64,000 bases of DNA from a virus (Duplodnaviria; Heunggongvirae; Uroviricota; Caudoviricetes), in IMG/VR virus record IMGVR_UViG_2645727901_000008; one strand, given 5' to 3'. The notes below the pieces were generated by a model, which did no database searches, was not told the origin of the DNA, and worked only from the letters and a program-made list of their open reading frames with translations. Within the stretch, counting starts at the first letter, position 1, and the number at the start of each line of letters is the position of its first letter. A program made the position numbers and the translations under genes. Positions 1-63,360 of the stretch are shown in pieces.

Positions 1-1280
1 CTCCATGTGTTAGCCGTACTCAACAGGGGGATCTTTTCACCGCTGGTACCGAGTTCTCTTAAACCAAGGTATTGGATAACGGCCAGTGTGCTTGTTTTAG
101 CCAGAATATCGCGACCGACTGACGTTAAATCAGTCTGCGCTACCGTATCCTTATCAATGAAATAAGGCAGTTTGTTTGCACCAGTCGCAAGACCAGCAAG
201 CGCGGTTAAAGTTGCATCCAGAGGCTGTTTGCCTGCCAGCGCATTTGTCATTGTTGTCGCAAAGTTCGGGTCATTGCCCAGTGCTGCTGCAAGCTCATTC
301 AGGGTATCAAGAGCTTCAGGTGATGAGCCGATCAATGCAGAGATAGCAGCTCTTACATAAGCGGTCGTAGCAATCTGCGTGTTATTCGTACCCTGTGCAG
401 CGGTAGGCGCAGTAGGTATTCCCGTTAATGCAGGGCTTGCTAAAGGCGCTTTGAGAGCCAGGGCATTGTTGATAGTTGTGCTGAAATTCGGGTCGTTATT
501 GATCGCAGCCGCTATTTCTTTCAGCGTGTCCATCGTTCCCGGAGCACCATTGATAAGCGCATTTATAGCAGCATAGACAAAGGCCGCATTTGCGATCTGT
601 GTGTTGTTTGTACCGGGTTCAGGTGTTGGCGAAGTCGGCGTACCTGACAGATGCGGACTATCGAGCGGAGCTTTTGTATCAACCAAATCATGGAGAGTTT
701 TGACAGCCAGAGGTGTAGCCGCTTTTCTTTCTTCTGTACTGCTTATTTCATTAGAGAATTCGACACCAACAGCACGGTTAACTCGGTATTTAAGCACAAT
801 CATTTCTTTAGTCACAGCCGTTGCGCCGCTAGGCACGATAACTCGACATAATTCAATTTGATTCTGCCCAATAGTATTGTCCGTACGCACGTAAATTCTT
901 GCAGCGCTGACAGAAGATGCGCTATCTACCTGTGTCGTTTTTACACCATGTTCAAAATTGGCTTCCAGCACAATAATGTTGGTAGCCCCAGCCTTTACCG
1001 AGACAGTCACATCTTCTATTTGCTGAACGGATATCTGAACATTATTTACATCTACTGAAGCAGCCCCTTTACCTTCTGAGTTTTCAGAAGTTATACGGAC
1101 GCTCAACCCTGTGCCGGGAACTGGTTCAAATCCACAGTAAAAGCCAGGCAAAACAATATTTTTAAGTTTTCTGTTAAGAGCCGAACTACTATAGAGTTCG
1201 AAATATTGAACATCAGCAAGCAACGGCTGTGAGACACCAGAGGATAGTGTCATTATGTTGTTCGTTTTATCAGCCCCCAT
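1..1280 (-). CDS. Tail fiber protein, N-terminal (constant) part; partial ORF running off the window start
   Basis: Reverse-strand ATG at 1280-1278 (MGADKTNNIMTLSS...), no stop before position 1; translation contains P2 gpH / P1 S / Mu S-type motifs (APLxSPxLTGxPTAPTAxQGTNNTQIATTAYV, NELAAALGNDPNF, ATLTALAGL). Not in ORF track because no stop lies inside the window. Confidence 0.85.
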   Translation of the reverse strand, partial: MGADKTNNIMTLSSGVSQPLLADVQYFELYSSSALNRKLKNIVLPGFYCGFEPVPGTGLSVRITSENSEGKGAASVDVNNVQISVQQIEDVTVSVKAGATNIIVLEANFEHGVKTTQVDSASSVSAARIYVRTDNTIGQNQIELCRVIVPSGATAVTKEMIVLKYRVNRAVGVEFSNEISSTEERKAATPLAVKTLHDLVDTKAPLDSPHLSGTPTSPTPEPGTNNTQIANAAFVYAAINALINGAPGTMDTLKEIAAAINNDPNFSTTINNALALKAPLASPALTGIPTAPTAAQGTNNTQIATTAYVRAAISALIGSSPEALDTLNELAAALGNDPNFATTMTNALAGKQPLDATLTALAGLATGANKLPYFIDKDTVAQTDLTSVGRDILAKTSTLAVIQYLGLRELGTSGEKIPLLSTANTW

Positions 1281-34215: not shown

Positions 34216-34608
34216 TTGAAAAGATTGACTATTGCTTTACTGGCGTCTTTCCCTTTGATCGCGAGCGCCGGAAATTTACAAGTTAAGTGCGGTCGGTTTG
34301 ATATAAAAATCTATCCAGATGCCATATTTCTGAATGGGAATAAGGTTGATAACGTACACCGAAAAACTAAATCTGACGTAATGAGCTATGTGTTCCAGGA
34401 GTATGCGGAGATGGGGGGAACTTACACGCTGTACTCGCTGGATGTTCCTTCTCGCGGTGATATGACATTATCCCATCAATGGCAGAACGCCGATGGCGAA
34501 GCTCTGCGCGAAGTTAAAACAGAAAAATGCGGCACTTTCCATTCTTTTAAAGGGAAAGTGCCAAATGTTAAATCTGTGCTTGAAAAACAGCGCGCAGGTG
34601 ATTTTTAA
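34216..34608 (+). CDS. Secreted protein (signal peptide)
   Basis: MKRLTIALLASFPLIASA signal peptide; 130 aa. Confidence 0.55.
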   Translation: MKRLTIALLASFPLIASAGNLQVKCGRFDIKIYPDAIFLNGNKVDNVHRKTKSDVMSYVFQEYAEMGGTYTLYSLDVPSRGDMTLSHQWQNADGEALREVKTEKCGTFHSFKGKVPNVKSVLEKQRAGDF

Positions 34609-34696: not shown

Positions 34697-35326
34697 TCAT
34701 TTTTGTCGGATCTTTTCCAGCATATTTAATTCATTATCACTTTCTGCTGCTGAGACGGTTGGCCTCACATTTCCGAAATATTTCCTGTGAGACTCATGAC
34801 TTATGTATTCACCGACAGTTTCATTCTTGAATATACGAATTTGACATATGCGAGATCCAACAATAAGTTCTACAGGGCTATTCCCATGATTAAATAACTC
34901 TAAAGATATACAGCCTCTGTACCCTGGTTGTATCATGGTATTTAATGAAAGACCAAGCCTTGTATAGCTGCTTCTGGACAATACATCAGCGTAGCAATCT
35001 GGTGGCAAACAAACATATTCTAATGTTGTTGCCAGTACCACTTGATTCGGGTAAACAATGAATCTATCCCCAAGATCTCTCCTTGTTTCCTGGAAAAATG
35101 TTCTGATTGGTTGATGAGTATCATTGTTTTTTGATGGAATTAACTCTATTGACGGCTTCCTTGTCATAATAGACACTAAAAAATCGTAACCAAGTCTAAG
35201 GTCTATGGTGAAGTTCCCAATTTGGTTTTTATTTAGAAGAGGTTCAATGAACAACGACTCAGGTTCTTCTGATTCATAATATTGCAGCAATTCAGCTTTG
35301 CTTAGGAGATTCATTGTGCACTCCAT
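34697..35326 (-). CDS. dCTP deaminase (Dcd)/dUTPase-superfamily protein
   Basis: Blocks parallel to E. coli Dcd (IDLRLGYDF; VLATTLEYVCLPPD; SRSSYTRLGLSL; GYRGCISLELFNHGNSPVELIVGSRICQI); AT-rich. Confidence 0.7.
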   Translation of the reverse strand: MECTMNLLSKAELLQYYESEEPESLFIEPLLNKNQIGNFTIDLRLGYDFLVSIMTRKPSIELIPSKNNDTHQPIRTFFQETRRDLGDRFIVYPNQVVLATTLEYVCLPPDCYADVLSRSSYTRLGLSLNTMIQPGYRGCISLELFNHGNSPVELIVGSRICQIRIFKNETVGEYISHESHRKYFGNVRPTVSAAESDNELNMLEKIRQK

Positions 35327-36384
35327 TTTTCAAGAATCATTACGTTTCGAATCGATTTTTCAACCAAATCATTTATAGTTTTTTCTATGGCTTCTTGTGA
35401 CAACCCAGACCATATACCCGTAGGTTTTTCCCATTCAGAGCATAAGTACTGCCAGCTGCTGTTAATAAAAGCATGCATTTCATTGTGGTCGCGAATAACA
35501 AAAGGACGCACATTATCAAAAGCTGATTTCACATCAAGCAAAGGTGTCGGCAATGTCAAACAAGGAGAAATAATCTGCCCACCATTATGTAAGGCTGATA
35601 TCACAGCATTGAACATGCCAACAACTGGATTTTCCACTTTGTTCAAAAAGTCGCTTACAATTTTAACTCTATCTTCTGTGGATGGGTGAGTATAGCTTGC
35701 AGGATGAGAGCCAGCTAATTTGTATAAGAAATCTACCCCACTTTTTCCAATAAATTGGGCACTAAATAGATCTGCAAAATATTCTCTGCAATGATTTATC
35801 CAAATAACATCAGGTAGATTACTCCATTCTGGTCCAGGAAGTGTGCCTTTGTCCTTGGAACGATAGTTAAGACAGGCAAGCTCAGAAATACCTTTGCTAA
35901 TATCAACGAAATGTCCCAATTCGTGATATAAAGGTATAGAGCATAATGGTCGTCTTCTGTACATTTCAGGTAATGAAATCTGAATTAATTCGACATCGAA
36001 TTTGACATTTAAAACTTCGTCAAATAAAGAATACAAATTCTTGTTTACAGACTTAAAATAAAACCCATGCATATCTGGAGATAGGGCTGTGGTTATAAGT
36101 GTTTTTTCACTTATCCATTTTTTACAGGCATCATTTAAGCAATAGACAATCTCGTAGGGAATTTTCTTTGTAGTACTGCCAGTGAAAAAATTAACTGCAT
36201 CGGTGATAAAAAAAGTACAATCCGCAATTATTTTATCAGCAACATTCACATGGTTTTCATAGAGCTTATCCACCGCTTCTTGTAGAACAGCAAGATATTC
36301 ATGCATGTCTTTAGAAAAATAGGGAGATTCTGATATCTCCCTTAGCTTATTTCGAACTAATGTAAGTTGTGTAAATGCAAGCAT
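35311..36384 (-). CDS. HExxH zinc-metallopeptidase-like protein
   Basis: HELGH motif (YHELGHFVD) with downstream Glu (REYFAD); 357 aa; overlaps the downstream Dcd-like gene by 16 nt. Confidence 0.55.
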   Translation of the reverse strand: MLAFTQLTLVRNKLREISESPYFSKDMHEYLAVLQEAVDKLYENHVNVADKIIADCTFFITDAVNFFTGSTTKKIPYEIVYCLNDACKKWISEKTLITTALSPDMHGFYFKSVNKNLYSLFDEVLNVKFDVELIQISLPEMYRRRPLCSIPLYHELGHFVDISKGISELACLNYRSKDKGTLPGPEWSNLPDVIWINHCREYFADLFSAQFIGKSGVDFLYKLAGSHPASYTHPSTEDRVKIVSDFLNKVENPVVGMFNAVISALHNGGQIISPCLTLPTPLLDVKSAFDNVRPFVIRDHNEMHAFINSSWQYLCSEWEKPTGIWSGLSQEAIEKTINDLVEKSIRNVMILEKWSAQ

Positions 36385-36689
36385 TAAATGTACTCTAATA
36401 CATTCCGGGCCATTACGGGTTCTAACATATCTTCGCTAGTTACTTTGGTTAGCACCTGGGCGAGCGCCTTAGTGTGGCGTATCTCTACCGCGAGCGAGAT
36501 GGACTCTCTGTGAGAAGGAATCTGTAATTGATCACCTTTATCTACACTTAAGTTTGAGGCTTCTCTGATCACCTCATAAACCCGTAACTTTAACTGCTGT
36601 GACACTTCTTGTTGAGATGCTATAAGCTGAAGTACAGTCTTGATCAACTTCAAAGAATCAGAAGCTTGCTGAGGAACCGCATAGAGCAT
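36384..36689 (-). CDS. Small hypothetical protein, first gene of the three-gene operon
   Basis: 101-aa ORF ending exactly where the HExxH gene starts. Confidence 0.5.
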   Translation of the reverse strand: MLYAVPQQASDSLKLIKTVLQLIASQQEVSQQLKLRVYEVIREASNLSVDKGDQLQIPSHRESISLAVEIRHTKALAQVLTKVTSEDMLEPVMARNVLEYI

Positions 36690-37014: not shown

Positions 37015-37302
37015 TTAGCTCATTACTCGATAACGACGGGGAATGGAATTCTCCATCAGGCCACGAATTACTCCCGCCTCACGTAGTTCCTCTGTCTCCC
37101 AGTATCTGTTTGTCACCAGATCGAGGCTGGCTATGACCTTGTGCCGGTCATTCGGCATAGCTAATTTTTCTGCTATAACCATCAGTGAAAACTCTTCATC
37201 CAGTAGAATTTGATAGCAGTTTTTTGATAGTTCCACTTCCCTTATGAGACTGAAACGTCGCTGGATTGTGGCAGTAGAGTAAGTGAAATCTATTTTCTTC
37301 AT
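37015..37302 (-). CDS. Hypothetical protein
   Basis: 95-aa ORF downstream of the antirepressor-like gene. Confidence 0.45.
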   Translation of the reverse strand: MKKIDFTYSTATIQRRFSLIREVELSKNCYQILLDEEFSLMVIAEKLAMPNDRHKVIASLDLVTNRYWETEELREAGVIRGLMENSIPRRYRVMS

Positions 37303-37361
37303 CGTGCGGAGAATCCGATTATTTAGCAGTTAAAGCCCCGGACAGGCCGGGGCAACAGTAA

Positions 37362-38288
37362 TTAACTAACAATCCAGTCCATAGCAACCATATCCTCTGG
37401 CGCTAAATCAATAGCATGGATTTTCCCATCCCGGATAGTGCGCCAGTGCTTCCTTGATCCGCCTTCGGGCCATACCCATACACCTTCAGACCATGAGGCG
37501 CGACGGCATACCGTTGCATATCCACTTCTGATCTTCTCTCTGGCGGTATGCAGTGACAGATTATCTTTTGGGATTTCCGGTAAAGGATGATGGATTGCCT
37601 GAAACAGCCCCATCTTGGGATGATACCAGCGTTTGTTGCGTGGTTCTGCCTCCGACATAACCTGCTTGAAGGCTTTCTGGAAGGGGGCCAGGGCCACAAT
37701 GGAGCGTCGCGCAAGCAAACCATCTGGAGTTAAAAACTCATGCGTATCGGTGGGAATCCGGAAAGCGTTAACCAGGTTGCGACATTTGGCTTCGGTCAGG
37801 CCACATTTCGCCGCCAGCTGGCGGTAGCCAATGTAGCCTTCCGGAATATTGCCTTTCTTTATTTGCTCGAGTGTTTCAGCGACCATCGATACTTGTGCTG
37901 ATACCTCGGCTACCTGGGCATTTACGGCGTTGATCCGGCGTTCATGCTCAAGATGCATTTGCGCCATTTCAGCCAGGATTTCGGCTTTTGATTTTAACTG
38001 TACCCGGGCATTCTCCAGTTCGCGCCAGCGGTCCACCAGCCGGGCGGTGAATTCGGGAGAGAGCTGCGCGACGACGACAATACTATCGCGCTTGCCTTGC
38101 TCGCCTTCGAAGACGTAATAGCTCGCCGGGCGGCCTGCGGTGGGCTTTTCCTCAATTTGAGGAAAAGATATTACGCCCCGTTCCGCCAGGTGTTCAATGG
38201 TGCGTTTAACGTTATCAGGGCGCTTACCTACCAGTTCCGCGATCTCAATGCTGGTCATTGTCGCTTTTTGAGAGATGGACAGATTCAT
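37362..38288 (-). CDS. Antirepressor-like protein (Rha/Ant family N-terminal domain)
   Basis: N-terminus TSIEIAELVGKRPDNVKRTIEHL...GRPASYYVFEGEQ resembles phage Rha/antirepressor domains; 308 aa. Confidence 0.6.
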   Translation of the reverse strand: MNLSISQKATMTSIEIAELVGKRPDNVKRTIEHLAERGVISFPQIEEKPTAGRPASYYVFEGEQGKRDSIVVVAQLSPEFTARLVDRWRELENARVQLKSKAEILAEMAQMHLEHERRINAVNAQVAEVSAQVSMVAETLEQIKKGNIPEGYIGYRQLAAKCGLTEAKCRNLVNAFRIPTDTHEFLTPDGLLARRSIVALAPFQKAFKQVMSEAEPRNKRWYHPKMGLFQAIHHPLPEIPKDNLSLHTAREKIRSGYATVCRRASWSEGVWVWPEGGSRKHWRTIRDGKIHAIDLAPEDMVAMDWIVS

Positions 38289-38503
38289 CAGTGCGCCTCC
38301 ACGCAGTTCATCGGCAGATTCCAGTAATTGAGGATCTCCATCGCATCAAGAGTGAAGCGAGCAGCAAAAATGCAGGGTTCTTCGGGAAGGTATGAGCGCG
38401 CCTCTGCTTCGGTAGCAGCCATGACGCAGATATACAGGTGTTTTTGGCAGGAATAGAAACGCCAGATAAATTCAGAATGAGTTGGGGTAGGGATAGTAGC
38501 CAT
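38288..38503 (-). CDS. Small protein upstream of the antirepressor (Icd-like position)
   Basis: 71-aa ORF overlapping the ant-like start; P1 immI analogy only. Confidence 0.35.
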   Translation of the reverse strand: MATIPTPTHSEFIWRFYSCQKHLYICVMAATEAEARSYLPEEPCIFAARFTLDAMEILNYWNLPMNCVEAH

Positions 38504-38509
38504 ATTGGC

Positions 38510-38688
38510 AGCCTCCTTTGACTAAGTTAAGGAGCTACCGCGTGAGGTTCCAATCTCAATGGCGGTAGCACTGACTGGGTTGGAACTACCGGCGTCAAAG
38601 GGAACCGGCCTGCCTTTCGGCAGCCCAGCCAGCACTACCATTGATCTCTGAGCTAAACGCTACGTATGGCTGTGCGATGGCATGACAC
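38510..38688 (-). ncRNA. Candidate structured leader / antisense-RNA region (c4-like position)
   Basis: Non-coding stretch with several stems (gctaccgc...gcggtagc; ggaaccggcctgcctttcggcagcc) between a terminator and the icd/ant-like genes; speculative. Confidence 0.25.
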
Positions 38689-38710
38689 AAAAAAAGACGC
38701 TTTCGGCGTC
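38689..38710 (-). terminator. Rho-independent terminator on the minus strand (gacgccgaaagcgtc + U7)
   Basis: Hairpin followed by T7 on the minus strand, downstream of ref. Confidence 0.65.
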
Positions 38711-38815
38711 TGTGTCGCCTTTGACATTATCCGGGGTTCCAATCCCGGCACCCGTTTTTCTAAGGTGCCGTAGAAATATACCCCACGATAATGCCAGGGC
38801 GCAACAGTCAGTATT

Positions 38816-38983
38816 TTATGCTTTGGCGGATTTCTTCCGGGCTTGCTTGCAGGCGTAGGCCATTGCTTTAGCTTTCACTTCATCCAGCTTCCCGGTGATC
38901 GCTTCTTTTCCGAGAGTGACAAACCAGTCATAGCAACCGCCAGTGATGTTCTGGATTTGAAAGTTGAGGTAGCGAACGGTCAT
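38816..38983 (-). CDS. Possible small protein (55 aa)
   Basis: Minus-strand ORF MTVRYLNFQIQNITGGCYDWFVTLGKE...; preferred over the opposing track ORF 38843..39061. Confidence 0.3.
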   Translation of the reverse strand: MTVRYLNFQIQNITGGCYDWFVTLGKEAITGKLDEVKAKAMAYACKQARKKSAKA

Positions 38984-39314
38984 TTTGACACCCCCAGCGC
39001 GAGTAAAGAATGCAGATTATCGCGTGAGTGGCGGACAACGAGTGATGGGAAAAGACAGTAGCTGTTCATAGTGTAGTGACTCCTTGCTTTCGGAGCCGCC
39101 ATCGACTGTTCCACGGTCTGGTGGCGGCGCAATAAAGGCTGGAACACCGTGAGTCAACGGGGGCTTTTCAGCCACCTATATTGCACCGCCATAGGTATAG
39201 CGGCGGCAATAATACGAAAAACTAAACAGTTTGTCTCAAAAAGTTGACCGGTGTGCCAATCGGTAGTGAATGTACATCGGAGAAATTTACAATTCAACTT
39301 AAAATGTTAGAAAA

Positions 39315-39893
39315 CTAATTTATCAATTCAATCGCCATCTGATACAACGTCATTTCATCGGCATTGTGCCGCATGAAATCTGCTTTTCCGCCTATTTTTC
39401 CGTCAGCATGAACAGGGACCAGCCAGGGATATTGTTCTCGGACCTCGGCTGGCGCTGCGTACTGGTGGTGCCATTTACACAAAGGGAGGACATATTTATG
39501 CGCGTTCTCTGCCGTTCTCCCGAAGATATGGTGCAGGGATACTACTGGGCTATGTTGTCCGTGAATATGGCAGGCAATGCAGGGGAGAGTACCGATAGCG
39601 GTCTGTATCCGGCGTTCATCAGCTGTGAGTGATCTGCCCTTCAGGCCGCGTGACGTGCGTGTTTTTTTGGGCGGAGCGGATACAGCTTTATCTTTTCTCC
39701 GCTGTTCATATTGCTTTGCTTTTTCAATTTTCTTTTGCCGATATTCAGGCGATGCGGCTTTTTCTCTCGCTCGCTGCTGCTGGCGTTGAGCTTGTTGAAG
39801 GCGCTTTGCCCTTTGTTCCTCTCGCCAGGCCGGGTCAGCCAATTTTTGCATGGCTTTTTGTCTCTGTTTCTCCCAATAGCTCTGTTTCTGCAT
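39315..39893 (-). CDS. ref: Ref-like HNH endonuclease (recombination enhancement function)
   Basis: Basic disordered N-terminus plus SRGLKGRSLTADERRIQTAIGTLPCIACHIHG...SLHHIFGRTA...LPLCKWHHQYAAPAEVREQYPWLVPVHADG, matching P1 Ref as recalled. Confidence 0.9.
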   Translation of the reverse strand: MQKQSYWEKQRQKAMQKLADPAWREEQRAKRLQQAQRQQQRAREKAASPEYRQKKIEKAKQYEQRRKDKAVSAPPKKTRTSRGLKGRSLTADERRIQTAIGTLPCIACHIHGQHSPVVSLHHIFGRTAENAHKYVLPLCKWHHQYAAPAEVREQYPWLVPVHADGKIGGKADFMRHNADEMTLYQMAIELIN

Positions 39894-55653: not shown

Positions 55654-56691
55654 ATGAGTAAGAAGTCGATCGAGAAAGAGTACAAACGGTTCCTGCAAAC
55701 CGCTGAACGGTGGAAAGAGCTGGTGGTCGCAAACTCTGTTTTCCATGATACCAGTTATGCCGGCGAGGAATTCCGCCACGTTGCACTAACACATGATCAG
55801 AATGTACTAGAAGAAGCTGAAAAGTGCCTCACAGAATGGAAAGCCTTTGTTGACTTGTGCCGTAACGCTGACGGCAAAGCGTCCAACATTGTTGAGTCTG
55901 TATATTCTCCGATCCCATTCATTATTGAGGACACAAATCAAAGCACGCATATTGTTGTGCAAAGCGCGACCACCACCCGCTCATTTACGCGCGAAAATCT
56001 GCTCAAAAAATATGATGCAATTATAAAGAAAAGCCTGAAAAACAAGATATTTTCGCAGATTGTTGGTGCACTTGAAGAAGAGCGCCGTTTTTTCGCATCA
56101 GAACCTGAAGGGGAAGTTTACCGGGCGCGCAAAGATGGATACACAGATGTAGTGCTTACAACAAACATTGAAGGCAGCAATGCTCTGTCACGATTCAGGG
56201 TAGGCGCACACGGAGCCTTAGTGTTCGCAAAACTTCCGAACACCACAGTGCCCGTTGTTAATAATGTCGGCGAACGTCGCAGCATTACTATTTATTCTGG
56301 GGTTGAGTCGATACCTTGCGGCCTGCTTGGTGACTTTAGCCTCTATCGCGTTCGCGATCTGGAGAAACACCAACCAAGCTATGTTGCGAAGTCATATATC
56401 TTGCGAAACATCGACATCCGCAATGAGAGCTTAAAGAACAAATCAGCCAAAATGCTTGAGGAAGCCGATCCGGCTATTCGCCATATCATTGAGCGTAAAA
56501 TACAGACAGCACGCGAAGCGATGGCGAGACTGAATAAAATGGATCTGGAGTTGTTAGACGTAATGATGACATCCGGAGATGACCTGACAGGCATAAAACT
56601 GACAGACGCGCGGAAAAGATACGGTAAAACCATAGAAGAACGTTACGGGTTCACTTTCTCCCAAACACAGCACGCCGCTAAACTCTGGTAA
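55654..56691 (+). CDS. Hypothetical protein adjacent to lox (candidate regulator)
   Basis: 345-aa ORF with RBS; no recognisable motif. Confidence 0.55.
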   Translation: MSKKSIEKEYKRFLQTAERWKELVVANSVFHDTSYAGEEFRHVALTHDQNVLEEAEKCLTEWKAFVDLCRNADGKASNIVESVYSPIPFIIEDTNQSTHIVVQSATTTRSFTRENLLKKYDAIIKKSLKNKIFSQIVGALEEERRFFASEPEGEVYRARKDGYTDVVLTTNIEGSNALSRFRVGAHGALVFAKLPNTTVPVVNNVGERRSITIYSGVESIPCGLLGDFSLYRVRDLEKHQPSYVAKSYILRNIDIRNESLKNKSAKMLEEADPAIRHIIERKIQTAREAMARLNKMDLELLDVMMTSGDDLTGIKLTDARKRYGKTIEERYGFTFSQTQHAAKLW

Positions 56692-58225: not shown

Positions 58226-59589
58226 TAATCATCCTCCGGCGGTTCTATCGCGATATCATCATCTCCGGCGTCATACCCTGCATCAGATACATCATAATCA
58301 CCGTAAATTTCAGCCGTTGCCGAAGGGTCAATATCCAGCTCTTCGTCGTTGGCCTCGAATTCTCCAGCTTTACGCTCGCCATTGCGGTCGTAATCTCCGC
58401 ACCCCAATTCTTCAACAATGGTTGCCACATCCGCCCGGCGCTCTGCCAGCCATTGCGGATGGTTAGCCTGAAGCGTTGCAAACTCCCTTGCCTCTTTGTC
58501 CAGCTGTTCATCATCAACATCATTGACGTCAGAAACAGGTGGTTCGAGAAGAGTGATAGCTTTCGCCGCGCGCGCCGCGAGGATAGCCGGGACGCTGACC
58601 CCCTGGCGCTCGATGTATTCAGCAACACCGATATCATCCAGTTCCTCGCGCTCACGCATACGTATAGCGGCGGCGATAACTCTGGCTGCGCGTGCGTCAG
58701 CGCCAATGCGATATTCAATCTCTTTGCCACGCTGTTCGGCCTGTAGGCGTGCTAATTCGAGTTTTTCTCTGGCCTCAGCCTCTTTGAATGCTTGCTGGCG
58801 AGCGCTCTGACGAAGCTTTTCATCCCCCTGTCGCAGCTTTTGTTCGGACTGATATATAGCTGCCAACCTACTGATAAAATCATTCATGTAGTAGGCCGCG
58901 TCACTGATTAGACCGAGAAGACGCTGCCCAGGGTGCATTCCTTCTGGCTCTTTATCGCCCAAGGCGTCTATTTCCGCCTGTAGGCGTTCGGCCTCCTGAT
59001 CAACAATGCTTTGATACTGAAGTGCGCGCTCTTGCGCCATTTGAATTGCTAACCGCAGGTGTTCTTCTGCGCCGTTCTTCATCATATCGCGAGCCACATT
59101 CGTAGTGGGCAATGTGGCACGCTGCACAGCACCGTCAGGGATCATTGCAGAAGATCCCTCAATTTTTGGGGCGCTTTTATCTTCTTCGGGGATCATTTTC
59201 GCCATTTTTTCGCGCAATGATCTCCTGACAGATTCTTTTATCTCATTGTTATTATTTGCATTATTTTCATGATCCGAAGTTTTCTTTCTCGGCATACTTC
59301 GGAAAGAACCTGCGCCCTGCGAATTGTCAATTTCTGTAAATTTTGTTTTTTCTGCACCCTCTTCCAGCTTTTTTGTTGCTCTTCCCGCCCGTTTTTTTTC
59401 AGGTGATTTGGTGCTTTTTTTTGTTGTCTTTACCTGCGACCGCACCTCATTTTTTTTCATATTGAGATGCTTTCTGGCTGTATTGAAGCTAAGGCCATGC
59501 TCCTCACAGTATTCCTTTACAGTGATCCCTTTTTCTTCACGCAACGCTATAAAGCGGGCGCGGTGCTCCTCCCAATTAACCAGACTCAT
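58225..59589 (-). CDS. pacA: Terminase small/pac-recognition subunit (PacA-like)
   Basis: 454 aa, N-terminal HTH-like region, charged coiled-coil middle, acidic C-terminus; contains a GATC cluster. Confidence 0.7.
   Translation of the reverse strand: MSLVNWEEHRARFIALREEKGITVKEYCEEHGLSFNTARKHLNMKKNEVRSQVKTTKKSTKSPEKKRAGRATKKLEEGAEKTKFTEIDNSQGAGSFRSMPRKKTSDHENNANNNNEIKESVRRSLREKMAKMIPEEDKSAPKIEGSSAMIPDGAVQRATLPTTNVARDMMKNGAEEHLRLAIQMAQERALQYQSIVDQEAERLQAEIDALGDKEPEGMHPGQRLLGLISDAAYYMNDFISRLAAIYQSEQKLRQGDEKLRQSARQQAFKEAEAREKLELARLQAEQRGKEIEYRIGADARAARVIAAAIRMREREELDDIGVAEYIERQGVSVPAILAARAAKAITLLEPPVSDVNDVDDEQLDKEAREFATLQANHPQWLAERRADVATIVEELGCGDYDRNGERKAGEFEANDEELDIDPSATAEIYGDYDVSDAGYDAGDDDIAIEPPEDD
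59139..59275. other. Candidate pac site: cluster of five GATC-containing hexamers inside pacA
   Basis: GATC at 59140, 59153, 59191, 59219, 59271 within about 135 bp; P1 pac is a Dam-methylated hexamer cluster inside pacA. Confidence 0.35.
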
Positions 59590-61508: not shown

Positions 61509-61584
61509 TGGTGGCCCCTACCGGACTTGAACCGGTGACCGTGCGATTATGAGTCGCCAGCTCTAACCACTGAGCTAAAGGGCC
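61509..61584 (-). tRNA. tRNA with CAU anticodon (tRNA-Ile2-like; Met not excluded)
   Basis: Minus-strand GGCCCTTTAGCTCAGTGGTTAGAGC...CTCATAA...GGTTCAAGTCC...GGGGCCACCA; close to E. coli ileX as recalled; CCA encoded. Confidence 0.85.
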
Positions 61585-61594
61585 AATTAGTGTT

Positions 61595-61705
61595 TTATTT
61601 TCGACGCCTGAGATTCTTCGCGACTTGTTCTACGCCGTATACGATCACAAGTAGAAACAGCAAAAACCATCCAGGGTTCTTATCGATATACGTCCAAAAA
61701 TCCAT
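61595..61705 (-). CDS. Possible 36-aa membrane peptide
   Basis: MDFWTYIDKNPGWFLLFLLVIVYGVEQVAKNLRRRK; start overlaps upstream stop (TGATG). Confidence 0.3.
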   Translation of the reverse strand: MDFWTYIDKNPGWFLLFLLVIVYGVEQVAKNLRRRK

Positions 61706-61869
61706 CATGAGTTCCTGAACGCACCTTCAATAATCGGCAATAGCAATACCACAGCTACTGAAACTAATGCCCCATCAGCCAACACCGACATCACTTTGCT
61801 GGTGAAATCCACCAGTACGGACAAAACGAGAAAGCCAATGGCGCCCGCAATACGCGCCTTGCCAATCAT
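61705..61869 (-). CDS. Possible 54-aa membrane peptide
   Basis: MIGKARIAGAIGFLVLSVLVDF...; ATG overlaps the TerB-like stop (TAATG). Confidence 0.35.
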   Translation of the reverse strand: MIGKARIAGAIGFLVLSVLVDFTSKVMSVLADGALVSVAVVLLLPIIEGAFRNS

Positions 61870-62303
61870 TACAGATAATCTTCCACACGAAGGCCAAGAC
61901 GGCGACCAACCTCTTCCAGAACCTTATGCTCCGCAGGTTCGATTTCACCATCTGCTTCAGCGATCGTGAGCATGTTCACGAAGACTTCTTCCGCTTCTTT
62001 GGGATCGTTTTTGATATCTTCAATTTCGCGGAGGATATTCATGCGACCAACACGGAAACCAGCTTCCAGTTGCTCAGTAAAACGGGTGATTGTTGCGGTA
62101 ATTTCGTTGCCAAAATGACTTAAGCGAGGATTAGAGCGGACAAGCTGATCAAGTTTCGCTGTTTCTTCCTTTTCGATTTCACCATCTGCGGCAGACACCA
62201 GCAAACAGCCACCGATGATGGCCTCCATCAGATCGCGATTCTCAACCCTTTTCAGCTCTACTTTTGCTGAAGCGACTTTCTTACCGAAAAATTTACCGAA
62301 CAT
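61869..62303 (-). CDS. TerB-like (tellurite-resistance family) protein
   Basis: Repeated ADGEIE-type motifs (SAADGEIEKEE; AEADGEIEPAE); likely start MFGKFFGKK at 62303. Confidence 0.6.
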   Translation of the reverse strand: MFGKFFGKKVASAKVELKRVENRDLMEAIIGGCLLVSAADGEIEKEETAKLDQLVRSNPRLSHFGNEITATITRFTEQLEAGFRVGRMNILREIEDIKNDPKEAEEVFVNMLTIAEADGEIEPAEHKVLEEVGRRLGLRVEDYL

Positions 62304-62570
62304 TGGTTTTCCCTCAATAAACATGACGTATTTATTAGGTTGCGGTGCCTGGTGCCTCCAGGTGACGTTAACCAGTTAACAATTAACGCCGGGATTTTTG
62401 TCTTCACAATTAAGGAGGATTGTTTTAACTGTTCCGCGTGCGCTTAGCCGCATTCACCGCAATGGTAAGAGCACTTGGCTGGCTGGGCGGCGATGACGCC
62501 TGTACGCATTTGGTGAACCGGTTCTGCTTCCGGCATTCGCTTAATTAGCCAAATACTCTTAACGTTGCAC

Positions 62571-62657
62571 TGGCGGAGAGTAATGGAATCGAACCATCAT
62601 CGCTTGCGCAATGGGACGGTTTTCAAGACCGCTTGAGCACCATGCTCCCTACTCTCC
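62571..62657 (-). tRNA. Class-II tRNA-like gene, anticodon UGA (tRNA-Ser-like), atypical D-arm
   Basis: 7-bp acceptor stem (GGAGAGT/ACTCTCC) + G + CCA, anticodon arm GGTCTTGAAAACCG as in E. coli tRNA-Ser(UGA), T-loop TTCGATT, long variable region. Confidence 0.5.
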
Positions 62658-62793
62658 CGTTATTGTGGCGACCGGTGCTGATCTCCGGCTTGCGGTTATT
62701 TCAGACTCTCACGGGCGTTTAATTGCCCCGCCGAACAGCTCTTTTCCGCAATAGCTGCAATGTCTTTCGCGCATCAGCCTGCGCATTCACCAC

Positions 62794-62881
62794 AATGTTG
62801 AGAACACTGGTTGTCACGCTGCAACGCAACATTTATTCGTAGATTGGGATATGACCCCGTTACGCCAGTGTTCTCAACGTT
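62794..62881. repeat. Inverted repeat (aatgttgagaacactgg ... ccagtgttctcaacgtt), 16/17 match, about 55-bp spacer
   Basis: Read directly from sequence. Confidence 0.5.
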
Positions 62882-63030
62882 GTAGTGCCGGTTACGGTTC
62901 CGGCCAGGCCTCTTCCTCAACGGGTTGTTCTCCATACGGACTACCGTTTATTGGTCGTTCCTGCGGTTTATGTTGTGAAGCCAGATGCTTATCTTCTGGT
63001 TGCTTCAAAGAGCTGCACTTCATCACAACG

Positions 63031-63100
63031 GTAAGGGTACTTCGTAGGGATTCGAACCCTCTGCCAAGCACGGCGATCTCCGACGTCGCAAAATACCCTT
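63031..63100 (-). ncRNA. Truncated tRNA-like element flanked by a 10-bp inverted repeat
   Basis: Canonical T-arm (GGGTTCGAATCCC) and acceptor-like stem, D-arm-like hairpin, no anticodon arm of normal length; ggtaagggta/tacccttacc terminal inverted repeat. Confidence 0.3.
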
Positions 63101-63111
63101 ACCTGTTGCGT

Positions 63112-63187
63112 TGGTGCCGATTAACGGGATCGAACCGCTGACCATTCGCTTACAAAGCGACTGCTCTACCAACTGAGCTAAACCGGC
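63112..63187 (-). tRNA. tRNA-Thr (anticodon UGU)
   Basis: Minus-strand GCCGGTT-TA-GCTCAGTTGGTAGAGC-...TTTGTAA...GGTTCGATCC...AATCGGC-A-CCA cloverleaf. Confidence 0.85.
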
Positions 63188-63191
63188 AATT

Positions 63192-63278
63192 TGGTGGGGA
63201 GTGATGGAGTCGAACCACCCGAGTCGCAATGACAGTAGATTTACAGTCTACCCCGCTACCCCTACGGACTAACTCCCC
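63192..63278 (-). tRNA. tRNA-Tyr-like (anticodon GUA, class II)
   Basis: Acceptor GGGGAGT/ACTCCCC + A + CCA; anticodon arm TAGACTGTAAATCTACTGTCAT nearly identical to E. coli tRNA-Tyr; D-arm irregular. Confidence 0.6.
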
Positions 63279-63283
63279 TAAAG

Positions 63284-63360
63284 TGGCGATGGTGGGTGGA
63301 TTCGAACCACCGACCGACAGCTTAGAAGGCTGCTGCTCTATCCTACTGAGCTACACCATC
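63284..63360 (-). tRNA. tRNA-Arg (anticodon UCU)
   Basis: GATGGTG-TA-GCTC-AGTAGGATA-GAGC-A-GCAGC-CTTCTAA-GCTGT-CGGTC-GGTGG-TTCGAAT-CCACC-CACCATC-G-CCA. Confidence 0.85.

Follow-up and report, generated by a model that had tools for sequence, protein, structure and literature searches.

A probable immI-type immunity module with C4 and IsrK-type RNAs and its own recognition alleles in a D6-like plasmid prophage

immI-type systems and the D6-like locus

The closest described relatives of the immunity locus considered here belong to the P1 family of plasmid prophages. In the P1 record, sites a1 and b1 are annotated upstream of c4, and sites a2 and b2 downstream of it "for repression of icd ant translation", with c4 specifying an RNA of 77 nucleotides (nt). 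For P1, studies by Citron, Heinrich, Riedel and Schuster are reported to show release of C4 from the operon transcript by RNase P, and the translational block is said to lead to Rho-dependent termination, against which translation of icd protects. D6 is a P1-like plasmid prophage whose record already labels both open reading frames (ORFs) of interest, as an Icd-like protein and an "anti-repressor Ant". For a D6-like plasmid, homologues of c4, icd and the antirepressor have been reported together with a second c4/icd-like region (PMC6799933). Here we describe a locus of this type on the minus strand of the IMG/VR virus record IMGVR_UViG_2645727901_000008 (Caudoviricetes), a stretch of 64,000 nt analysed as a whole and referred to below as the window. 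An earlier note on this DNA had proposed, at positions 37015-38712, an antirepressor module mirroring the P1 c4-icd-ant immunity region. The system is already known, and the locus type has already been described for D6-like plasmids.

Related switches have been studied outside the P1 family. In Gifsy-1, a short terminated RNA, IsrK, acts in trans to raise translation of a downstream antirepressor more than 100-fold (PMC4825925). That report mentions neither P1, c4 nor icd, and compares the processed RNA STnc1160 only with the CI RNA of P4 (PMC4825925), while a 2025 review treats IsrK and c4 as unrelated entries. The CI RNA of P4 acts on seqA/seqC and, according to the summary in PMC4825925, makes transcription of the replication operon terminate prematurely. 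The immI region of P22 shares both the name and the logic, in that an antisense RNA limits synthesis of an antirepressor. It differs in that the P22 RNA, sar, is transcribed against ant over the ribosome-binding site of that gene, and in that the promoter is repressed by Mnt and Arc (PMC12197685), whereas the RNA in the window shares the strand of its target and would act through two short loops.

Our analysis indicates that this D6-like plasmid prophage of the P1 family very probably carries an immunity module of the immI type at the locus. We describe it as the form that immI takes in the D6 lineage, distinguished by specificity alleles of its own and by an upstream element of the IsrK type. 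As the earlier note had suggested from gene order, the likeness to P1 c4-icd-ant is close: promoter, a1, b1, C4, a2, b2 on the ribosome-binding site, icd and a coupled gene follow one another as in the annotated immI of P1 and in P7, the C4 RNAs belong to the same Rfam family, and in each case two short recognition sequences set specificity. The sequence features of a P1-type immI were found for the RNAs and for icd, whereas homology to Ant1/2 and a P1-type C1 operator were not. Further differences concern the recognition sites, which read TTGACAG / GTTAGTG in P1 and TTAGCAG / GATTGTG in P7 compared with a TTGGAAC and b GTCAAAGG in the window; the upstream element, which is c4-a1b1 of Rfam in P1 and P7 and isrK with a strong terminator in the window; and the genes downstream, as kilA-repL does not follow the module here.

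The ~2.4-kb region is 96% identical in DNA to Escherichia phage D6 and 93-98% identical to E. coli plasmids of ~90 kb, with 570 of the 581 matching places lying on plasmids. By sequence, the window is assigned to the D6-like plasmid prophages of the P1 family. It has both the locus and the genome type in common with D6 and with D6-like plasmid prophages such as pYU39_89, and retains the D6 gene order of ref, C4-like RNA, orf85, isrK/C4, icd, ant and a pmgF-like gene. Differences from D6 comprise a switch of both specificity sites, an Ant protein 85% identical to that of D6, and a three-gene insert, including a dCTP deaminase-like gene, that follows the pmgF-like ORF in the window and is absent from D6.

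C4 RNA, IsrK-type leader and recognition sites

Between the terminator and icd lies a noncoding stretch of 185 nt (38688..38504; all features of the module and of the cassette upstream of it are on the minus strand). The structured region supposed by the earlier note to occupy this stretch was found by covariance search to contain a full-length C4 antisense RNA gene (38645..38558), matching Rfam C4 (RF01695) at 77.1 bits (E 6e-14; gathering score 45 bits) over the entire model (1-87/87), in a scan that was repeated on the whole window. Its predicted fold, with a free energy of -46.5 kcal/mol and a folding z-score of -5.0 relative to shuffled sequences, encloses two hairpins and a single-stranded junction within a long closing stem. 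In an alignment of 13 homologues, compensatory changes were identified in 14 of 22 consensus pairs. Judged from the 77-nt c4 RNA of P1, the mature RNA probably extends over ~38639..38561, giving a length of ~79 nt. Directly after the closing stem stands GCCA, which resembles a tRNA acceptor end, as might suit processing of the P1 c4 kind.

Upstream of C4 we identified an IsrK-type leader RNA (38768..38688) that carries a1/b1 and ends in an intrinsic terminator. It matches Rfam isrK (RF01394) over the full model (1-77/77) at 38768..38690, with 62.7 bits (E 1.2e-11) against a gathering score of 50 bits, again in a covariance scan repeated on the whole window. The terminator, called by a terminator scan, comprises a 6-bp, G+C-rich stem (38711..38695) followed by seven T. 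It is the terminator with which the earlier note had opened the module; its presence on the minus strand was borne out, but it closes the module's own IsrK-type leader rather than an upstream gene. Since the terminator forms the 3' end of this element, the promoter of the module must sit upstream of it. We located a probable sigma-70 promoter at 38804..38775, with -35 TTGCGC (38804..38799), an 18-nt spacer and -10 TATATT (38780..38775), and transcription would start near 38768. This promoter aligns column by column with the annotated P1 promoter P1c4/P51b (TTGACC ... TATAGT) and also with the isrK promoter region of Gifsy-1 (TTGACA-17-TATATT). The 5' end of the module is accordingly placed near 38804, ~95 nt beyond the range given in the earlier note. 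The P1-type upstream family, Rfam c4-a1b1 (RF03163), reached only 22.4 bits at 38781..38728, below its gathering score of 46.7, compared with 51-56 bits for P1 and P7. Despite this miss, a1/b1 are present in the window, on an IsrK-type scaffold. When the 274-nt leader is folded to its free-energy minimum, a1/b1 and their surroundings pair with the b'/a' region.

Six recognition sites connect these elements. In the leader RNA, a1 (TTGGAAC, 38742..38736) lies in a hairpin loop and is followed by b1 (GTCAAAGG, 38725..38718). Within C4, b' (CCTTTGAC, 38601..38594) occupies the loop of hairpin 2 and a' (GTTCCAA, 38586..38580) the single-stranded junction. The icd-leader target region (38553..38512) comprises a2 (TTGGAAC, 38553..38547), 43 nt before the icd ATG, and b2 (GTCAAAGG, 38522..38515), which runs into the Shine-Dalgarno motif AAGGAGG (38518..38512), its last base being 11 nt from the ATG. 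Site a2 is complementary to a' over 7 nt and b2 to b' over 8 nt, in each case without a mismatch, and a1/b1 are identical to a2/b2 and likewise perfectly complementary to C4. When icd leaders are shuffled, the two downstream matches arise together at a frequency of 5e-5; for the two upstream matches the frequency in shuffled sequences is 1.5e-4.

Fifteen loci were compared, namely those of the window, D6, RCS47, 673R5, phiP27, five Stx phages, APSE-8, Gifsy-1, P1, P7 and 813R1. Across these loci the sites hold their positions but switch sequence jointly, with a'/b' covarying with a1/a2 and b1/b2. The geometry of a2/b2 is the same in the 14 other phages and corresponds to the annotated a2/b2 of P1, and in 14 of the 15 b2 overlaps the Shine-Dalgarno motif and keeps a constant spacing of 9-12 nt to the ATG. 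As a1/b1 covary strictly too, selection also acts on pairing at the upstream site. Among 12 distinct loci, cognate a'-a2 and b'-b2 matches range from 7+7 to 7+10 nt, except in 673R5, whose sites use G-U pairs and give perfect matches of only 4+4; non-cognate matches do not exceed 6+6, except where one site is shared. Over the 303-nt leader the window and D6 differ at 17 places, of which 12 belong to the six recognition sites (38520..38742), and every one of these 12 is compensatory. Together, a (TTGGAAC, 7 nt) and b (GTCAAAGG, 8 nt) are predicted to give this plasmid prophage an immunity specificity that differs from those of P1, P7 and D6.

A wider sample of 72 IMG/VR viral contigs that carry the C4 backbone of the window revealed two a alleles (TCC and CTC) and two b alleles (CTTTGAC and CTTTTGC) in all four combinations (27, 19, 19 and 7 contigs), the window having the combination TCC / CTTTGAC. 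In 70 of the 72, a1, a2, b1 and b2 all match the resident C4. The cassette precedes four kinds of cargo gene in this sample, corresponding to the window type, P1 Ant1, RCS47 ant and 673R5 Roi. Taken together, the comparisons show one portable cassette, consisting of an IsrK-type leader and C4 with or without icd, that is distributed among P1, P7, P4, D6-like plasmids, Stx phages, APSE and Gifsy-1, and whose recognition alleles reassort freely.

Based on these features, we propose that the promoter at 38804..38775 transcribes the leader (a1, b1 and terminator), C4, the icd leader (a2 and b2), icd and the coupled antirepressor-type gene, and that read-through transcripts would be processed, as by RNase P in P1, to the C4 RNA of ~79 nt. 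Through a' (GUUCCAA) and b' (CCUUUGAC), C4 would pair with a2 (UUGGAAC) and b2 (GUCAAAGG). With b2 lying over the Shine-Dalgarno motif of icd, this pairing would prevent ribosome loading and leave icd untranslated. The gene for a protein of 308 amino acids (aa), which starts on the icd stop codon, is expected to depend on icd translation and without it would be neither translated nor, through polarity, fully transcribed, so that Ant would not be made and a C1-type repressor would keep the prophage quiet. The upstream a1/b1, set free as a short terminated RNA, may compete for C4, in which case the relative amounts of decoy and repressor would depend on how often transcription terminates or reads through. 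In view of the relatives of the system in Gifsy-1 and P4, we favour this decoy, or anti-antisense, role of the terminated leader over the alternative of termination control.

Both of these relatives also offer accounts of their own. Gifsy-1 resembles the window in having isrK (79.3 bits) and C4 (69 bits) before an antirepressor-type gene, and in the a1/a'/a2 and b1/b'/b2 complementarities. Its C4 homologue falls exactly at the published position of "orf45"/STnc1160 (L013, 34316..34076, minus strand), and its IsrK carries a1/b1. The locus in the window could accordingly work as a positive switch of the IsrK type, in which the read-through RNA is inert through pairing of a1/b1 with a'/b' in cis and is opened in trans by the short leader. 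The leader in the window is itself an IsrK family member, the a1/b1-b'/a' pairing in its 274-nt fold resembles the "structure A" described for Gifsy-1, where short IsrK raised translation of anrP more than 100-fold (PMC4825925), and "orf45" coincides with a C4 homologue. We nevertheless consider such a switch somewhat unlikely as the account of the locus, as it represents a sub-mechanism of the same system that accounts for a1/b1 but not for C4, and as icd stands between C4 and the cargo in the same manner as in P1, where C4 is a genetic repressor; in Gifsy-1, icd is absent, the C4-coincident "orf45" abuts anrP directly, and AnrP is unrelated to the 308-aa protein. The Gifsy-1 system itself can be read simply, with IsrK supplying a1/b1 as a decoy for a C4 homologue.

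The P4 immunity region belongs to the same two Rfam families (C4 74.9 bits; isrK 60.8 bits) and likewise yields a processed RNA that can pair on both sides of itself, though neither icd nor an ant cargo is present. On this model C4 would mainly cause premature transcription termination through a1/b1 and a2/b2, with the ribosome block being secondary, a possibility that has been raised for STnc1160 (PMC4825925) and that fits both the position of a1/b1 directly before an intrinsic terminator and their covariation with C4, which is as strict as that of a2/b2. The location of b2 on the Shine-Dalgarno sequence at its near-constant distance from the ATG instead points to translational control, as does the annotation of a2/b2 in P1 as repressing translation of icd and ant. 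We regard a predominantly P4-like mode as unlikely, while recognising that both modes are compatible with each other. Far more improbable is that the 185-nt leader encodes a small protein rather than an RNA. An ATG-started ORF of 39 aa (38641..38522) does exist, is annotated as a coding sequence (CDS) in a 97.8%-identical plasmid and has its Gifsy-1 counterpart in "orf45", for which a tagged product was detected (PMC4825925). From the conserved ATG, however, the ORF spans anything from 14 to more than 55 aa across the 15 loci without conservation of sequence, the substitutions are compensatory pairs that keep the RNA helices, and the match to the C4 covariance model is highly significant. A cis-antisense RNA of the P22 type (sar) was also considered but gained no support from the opposite strand, where the one plus-strand promoter-like site, inside icd (38444..38472), belongs to a class of sites occurring at chance frequency (2 found, 2.5 expected). 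The preferred reading remains translational repression of icd by C4 with a1/b1 as decoy, and the known mechanism is unchanged by these results.

Several public records draw CDS features over RNA genes of this kind. PGAP has placed an "ash family protein" over the C4 gene of plasmid L002 (4660..4779), the counterpart of which in the window is 38641..38522. In phiP27 and a Stx1 phage, over-long "transcriptional regulator" and "Ant" ORFs cover the RNA genes (L008, 1948..2607; L017, 174..1063), and the P4 region at 921..1193 (minus strand; L096) is annotated as a 137-aa "cI gene product". Given that the ORF is not conserved across loci, database CDS calls across C4 RNA genes are probably spurious or over-extended. 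Annotation of such leaders would be improved by entering C4 and IsrK-type RNA genes where an "ash family protein" or an antirepressor ORF of excessive length now stands, and by moving the 5' boundary of the module upstream.

The icd homologue, the coupled gene and the repressor

The first translated gene of the operon (38503..38288) encodes a 71-aa homologue of Icd. Alignment of its product with P1 Icd, for which the earlier note had called, gave 63% identity (BLASTP E 5e-28), and the protein passes the NCBIfam model NF033153 "phage_ICD_like" with 49.5 bits against a cut-off of 25, in addition to falling in PHROG 1426. It is followed, in the order previously noted, by the gene for the 308-aa protein (38288..37362), which holds the "ant" position. 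The ATG of this second gene overlaps the icd stop codon as TGATG, implying translational coupling of the two.

Along its full length, the 308-aa protein aligns with PHROG 63, "anti-repressor Ant" (E 1.9e-62). Its N-terminal region is of the Rha-type winged-helix class, and its first ~140 aa are ~50% identical to Roi of Stx phages, including 933W. Its description in the earlier note as Rha/Ant-like consequently holds for the Rha/Roi type and the PHROG assignment, but not in the sense of homology to P1 Ant1/2. Similarity to P1 Ant1, Gifsy-1 AnrP, 673R5 Roi and the cargo of Stx2 F039 was none or marginal, and no relative of solved structure was found by sequence.

This raises the possibility that the cassette is as described while its cargo is not an antirepressor, the 308-aa protein being a Rha/Roi-type DNA-binding regulator for lytic growth. 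The only Pfam signals of the protein are those of the N-terminal winged-helix or Rha type, PGAP names it a "Rha family transcriptional regulator", the KilAC/ANT domain is not matched, and the resemblance to Roi proteins and lack of resemblance to P1 Ant1 point in the same direction. Set against this are the whole-length match to PHROG 63, the annotation of 933W Roi itself as an anti-repressor, and the presence of the same cassette before P1-type Ant1 and RCS47-type ant in other contigs, which indicates that the position is held by antirepressor-class genes. We judge a purely regulatory cargo to be rather unlikely, and retain the antirepressor as the predicted function, a role drawn from the PHROG and GenBank annotation of the protein together with its position.

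A number of observations weigh against the reading of the locus as an immI-type module. The promoter at 38804..38775 was placed by alignment and was not called by a consensus promoter scan. In direct comparisons, the 308-aa protein gave nothing significant with P1 Ant1/Ant2 (BLASTP E 0.26) and no detectable similarity to Gifsy-1 AnrP or to Roi of phage 673R5, and with Pfam Phage_pRha it scored 29.6 bits, missing the Rha cut-off of 29.9 by 0.3 bits. In the closest plasmid relative, ant is a frameshifted pseudogene, so the cargo gene can be lost. Finally, the C1-like protein of the window is just 20% identical to P1 C1, and a search of the whole window for the P1 C1 operator consensus ATTGCTCTAATAAATTT, allowing up to 3 mismatches, gave no match, so that control of the promoter by the repressor cannot be asserted.

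The C1-like protein (345 aa; 55654..56691, plus strand) is nonetheless likely to be the primary repressor of the prophage, aligning with P1 C1 at E 8e-6 and belonging to PHROG 1678. When the surroundings of the module promoter and of the promoter of the upstream cassette described below were screened de novo for recurring 15-mers, the result was a 17-nt motif, TTGAATTGTAAATTTCT, at 39297..39281, ~45 nt upstream of the latter promoter. The motif recurs with 3 mismatches at 59319..59335 and 34286..34270, giving three sites including itself where 0.43 would be expected, and 2 of 100 shuffles yielded equally good results. It could be a weak candidate for the operator of a D6-type C1 repressor.

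A second C4-like cassette and neighbouring genes

Between ref (39893..39315) and the isrK-C4 module we identified a further C4-like cassette. At 40.2 bits (E 8.6e-5), its RNA (39196..39117) falls short of the gathering score of Rfam C4, yet it folds in the manner of C4 (z = -4.6) and fits the covariation of the C4 closing stem. It is preceded by a promoter-like site (GAGACA at 39237..39232, a 17-nt spacer and TATTAT at 39214..39209) in which the hexamers are conserved while the spacer diverges. The putative recognition sites of this RNA, b' TGACTC (39156..39151) and a' TGTTCCA (39146..39140), are matched downstream by a2' TGGAACA (39113..39107) and by b2' GAGTCA (39082..39077), which lies on the Shine-Dalgarno sequence AAGGAG of a 29-aa ORF (39069..38980). 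Both matches occur in 1.8e-3 of shuffled leaders. The 29-aa ORF is coupled by ATGA to a 55-aa ORF (38983..38816; PHROG 7786, uncharacterised).

In D6-like plasmids of E. fergusonii and S. dysenteriae (L010 and L012), the same RNA stands before an Icd-like ORF of 61 aa, after which come the 55-aa ORF and a terminator. These plasmids are devoid of isrK-C4-icd-ant, and the upstream-type cassette is their only immI-like module. The fold, the promoter, the complementarity and the Icd-like ORF of the relatives together suggest that the upstream RNA is a divergent member of the C4 family, and the cassette matches the "second region" reported for a D6-like plasmid (PMC6799933). The b' loop is identical in 26 of 26 loci and the a' core is also kept, so that the specificity of this RNA is fixed across them. 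Variants 85-93% identical retain the short ORF at the peptide level. The 55-aa ORF gave no alignment with P1 Coi; its homologues among isolated phages are confined to D6, and all of its IMG/VR relatives are at least 85% identical. A supposed third icd/C4 copy near 48 kb, indicated by a weak tblastn match (E ~3.5), had no Rfam match at that place and was dismissed as noise.

The two cassettes may also communicate. The upstream C4-like RNA (39156..39140) can pair over 6+6 nt with the icd leader of the window (38553..38515), a result obtained in 3.3e-3 of shuffles, and the icd leader of D6 has different a2/b2 sites. Such pairing may represent allele-specific cross-talk. Also, no terminator was found between the upstream cassette and the isrK-C4 module, so transcription from the former may extend into the latter. 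That the element runs two C4-type RNA switches in series, one of fixed specificity governing the short leader peptide and the 55-aa protein and one with exchangeable a and b alleles and a diffusible IsrK-type decoy RNA, is an improbable extension of these observations; were it the case, the layers could be coupled into a two-tier immunity, the 55-aa protein would be a new small effector, and a1/b1 decoy RNAs of a superinfecting relative could derepress the resident prophage in an allele-specific manner. Besides this tandem second cassette, we regard the reassortment of alleles, the portability of the cassette and the C4 identity of Gifsy-1 "orf45" as useful chiefly in annotation and as leads.

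Downstream of ant, a G+C-rich hairpin (GCCCCGG-CCTGT-CCGGGGC, 37353..37335) followed only by TTTA was read from the sequence and may act as a weak terminator, though the terminator scan did not call it. The 95-aa ORF beyond it (37302..37015; PHROG 7349, for which no function is named), whose D6 homologue is annotated as "similar to P1 gene pmgF", had been included in the range of the earlier note but is a separate gene outside the immI module. Next follows the three-gene block (36689..34697, minus strand), made up of ORFs of 101 and 357 aa and the gene for a dCTP deaminase-like protein of 209 aa (Pfam DCD, E 1e-30). A PADLOC search of this block, the 55-aa ORF and the 95-aa ORF returned no matches. 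The same block is present in plasmid L002, and other genes occupy that place in D6. Elsewhere in the window, four tRNA genes are clustered at 61512..63360 (minus strand).

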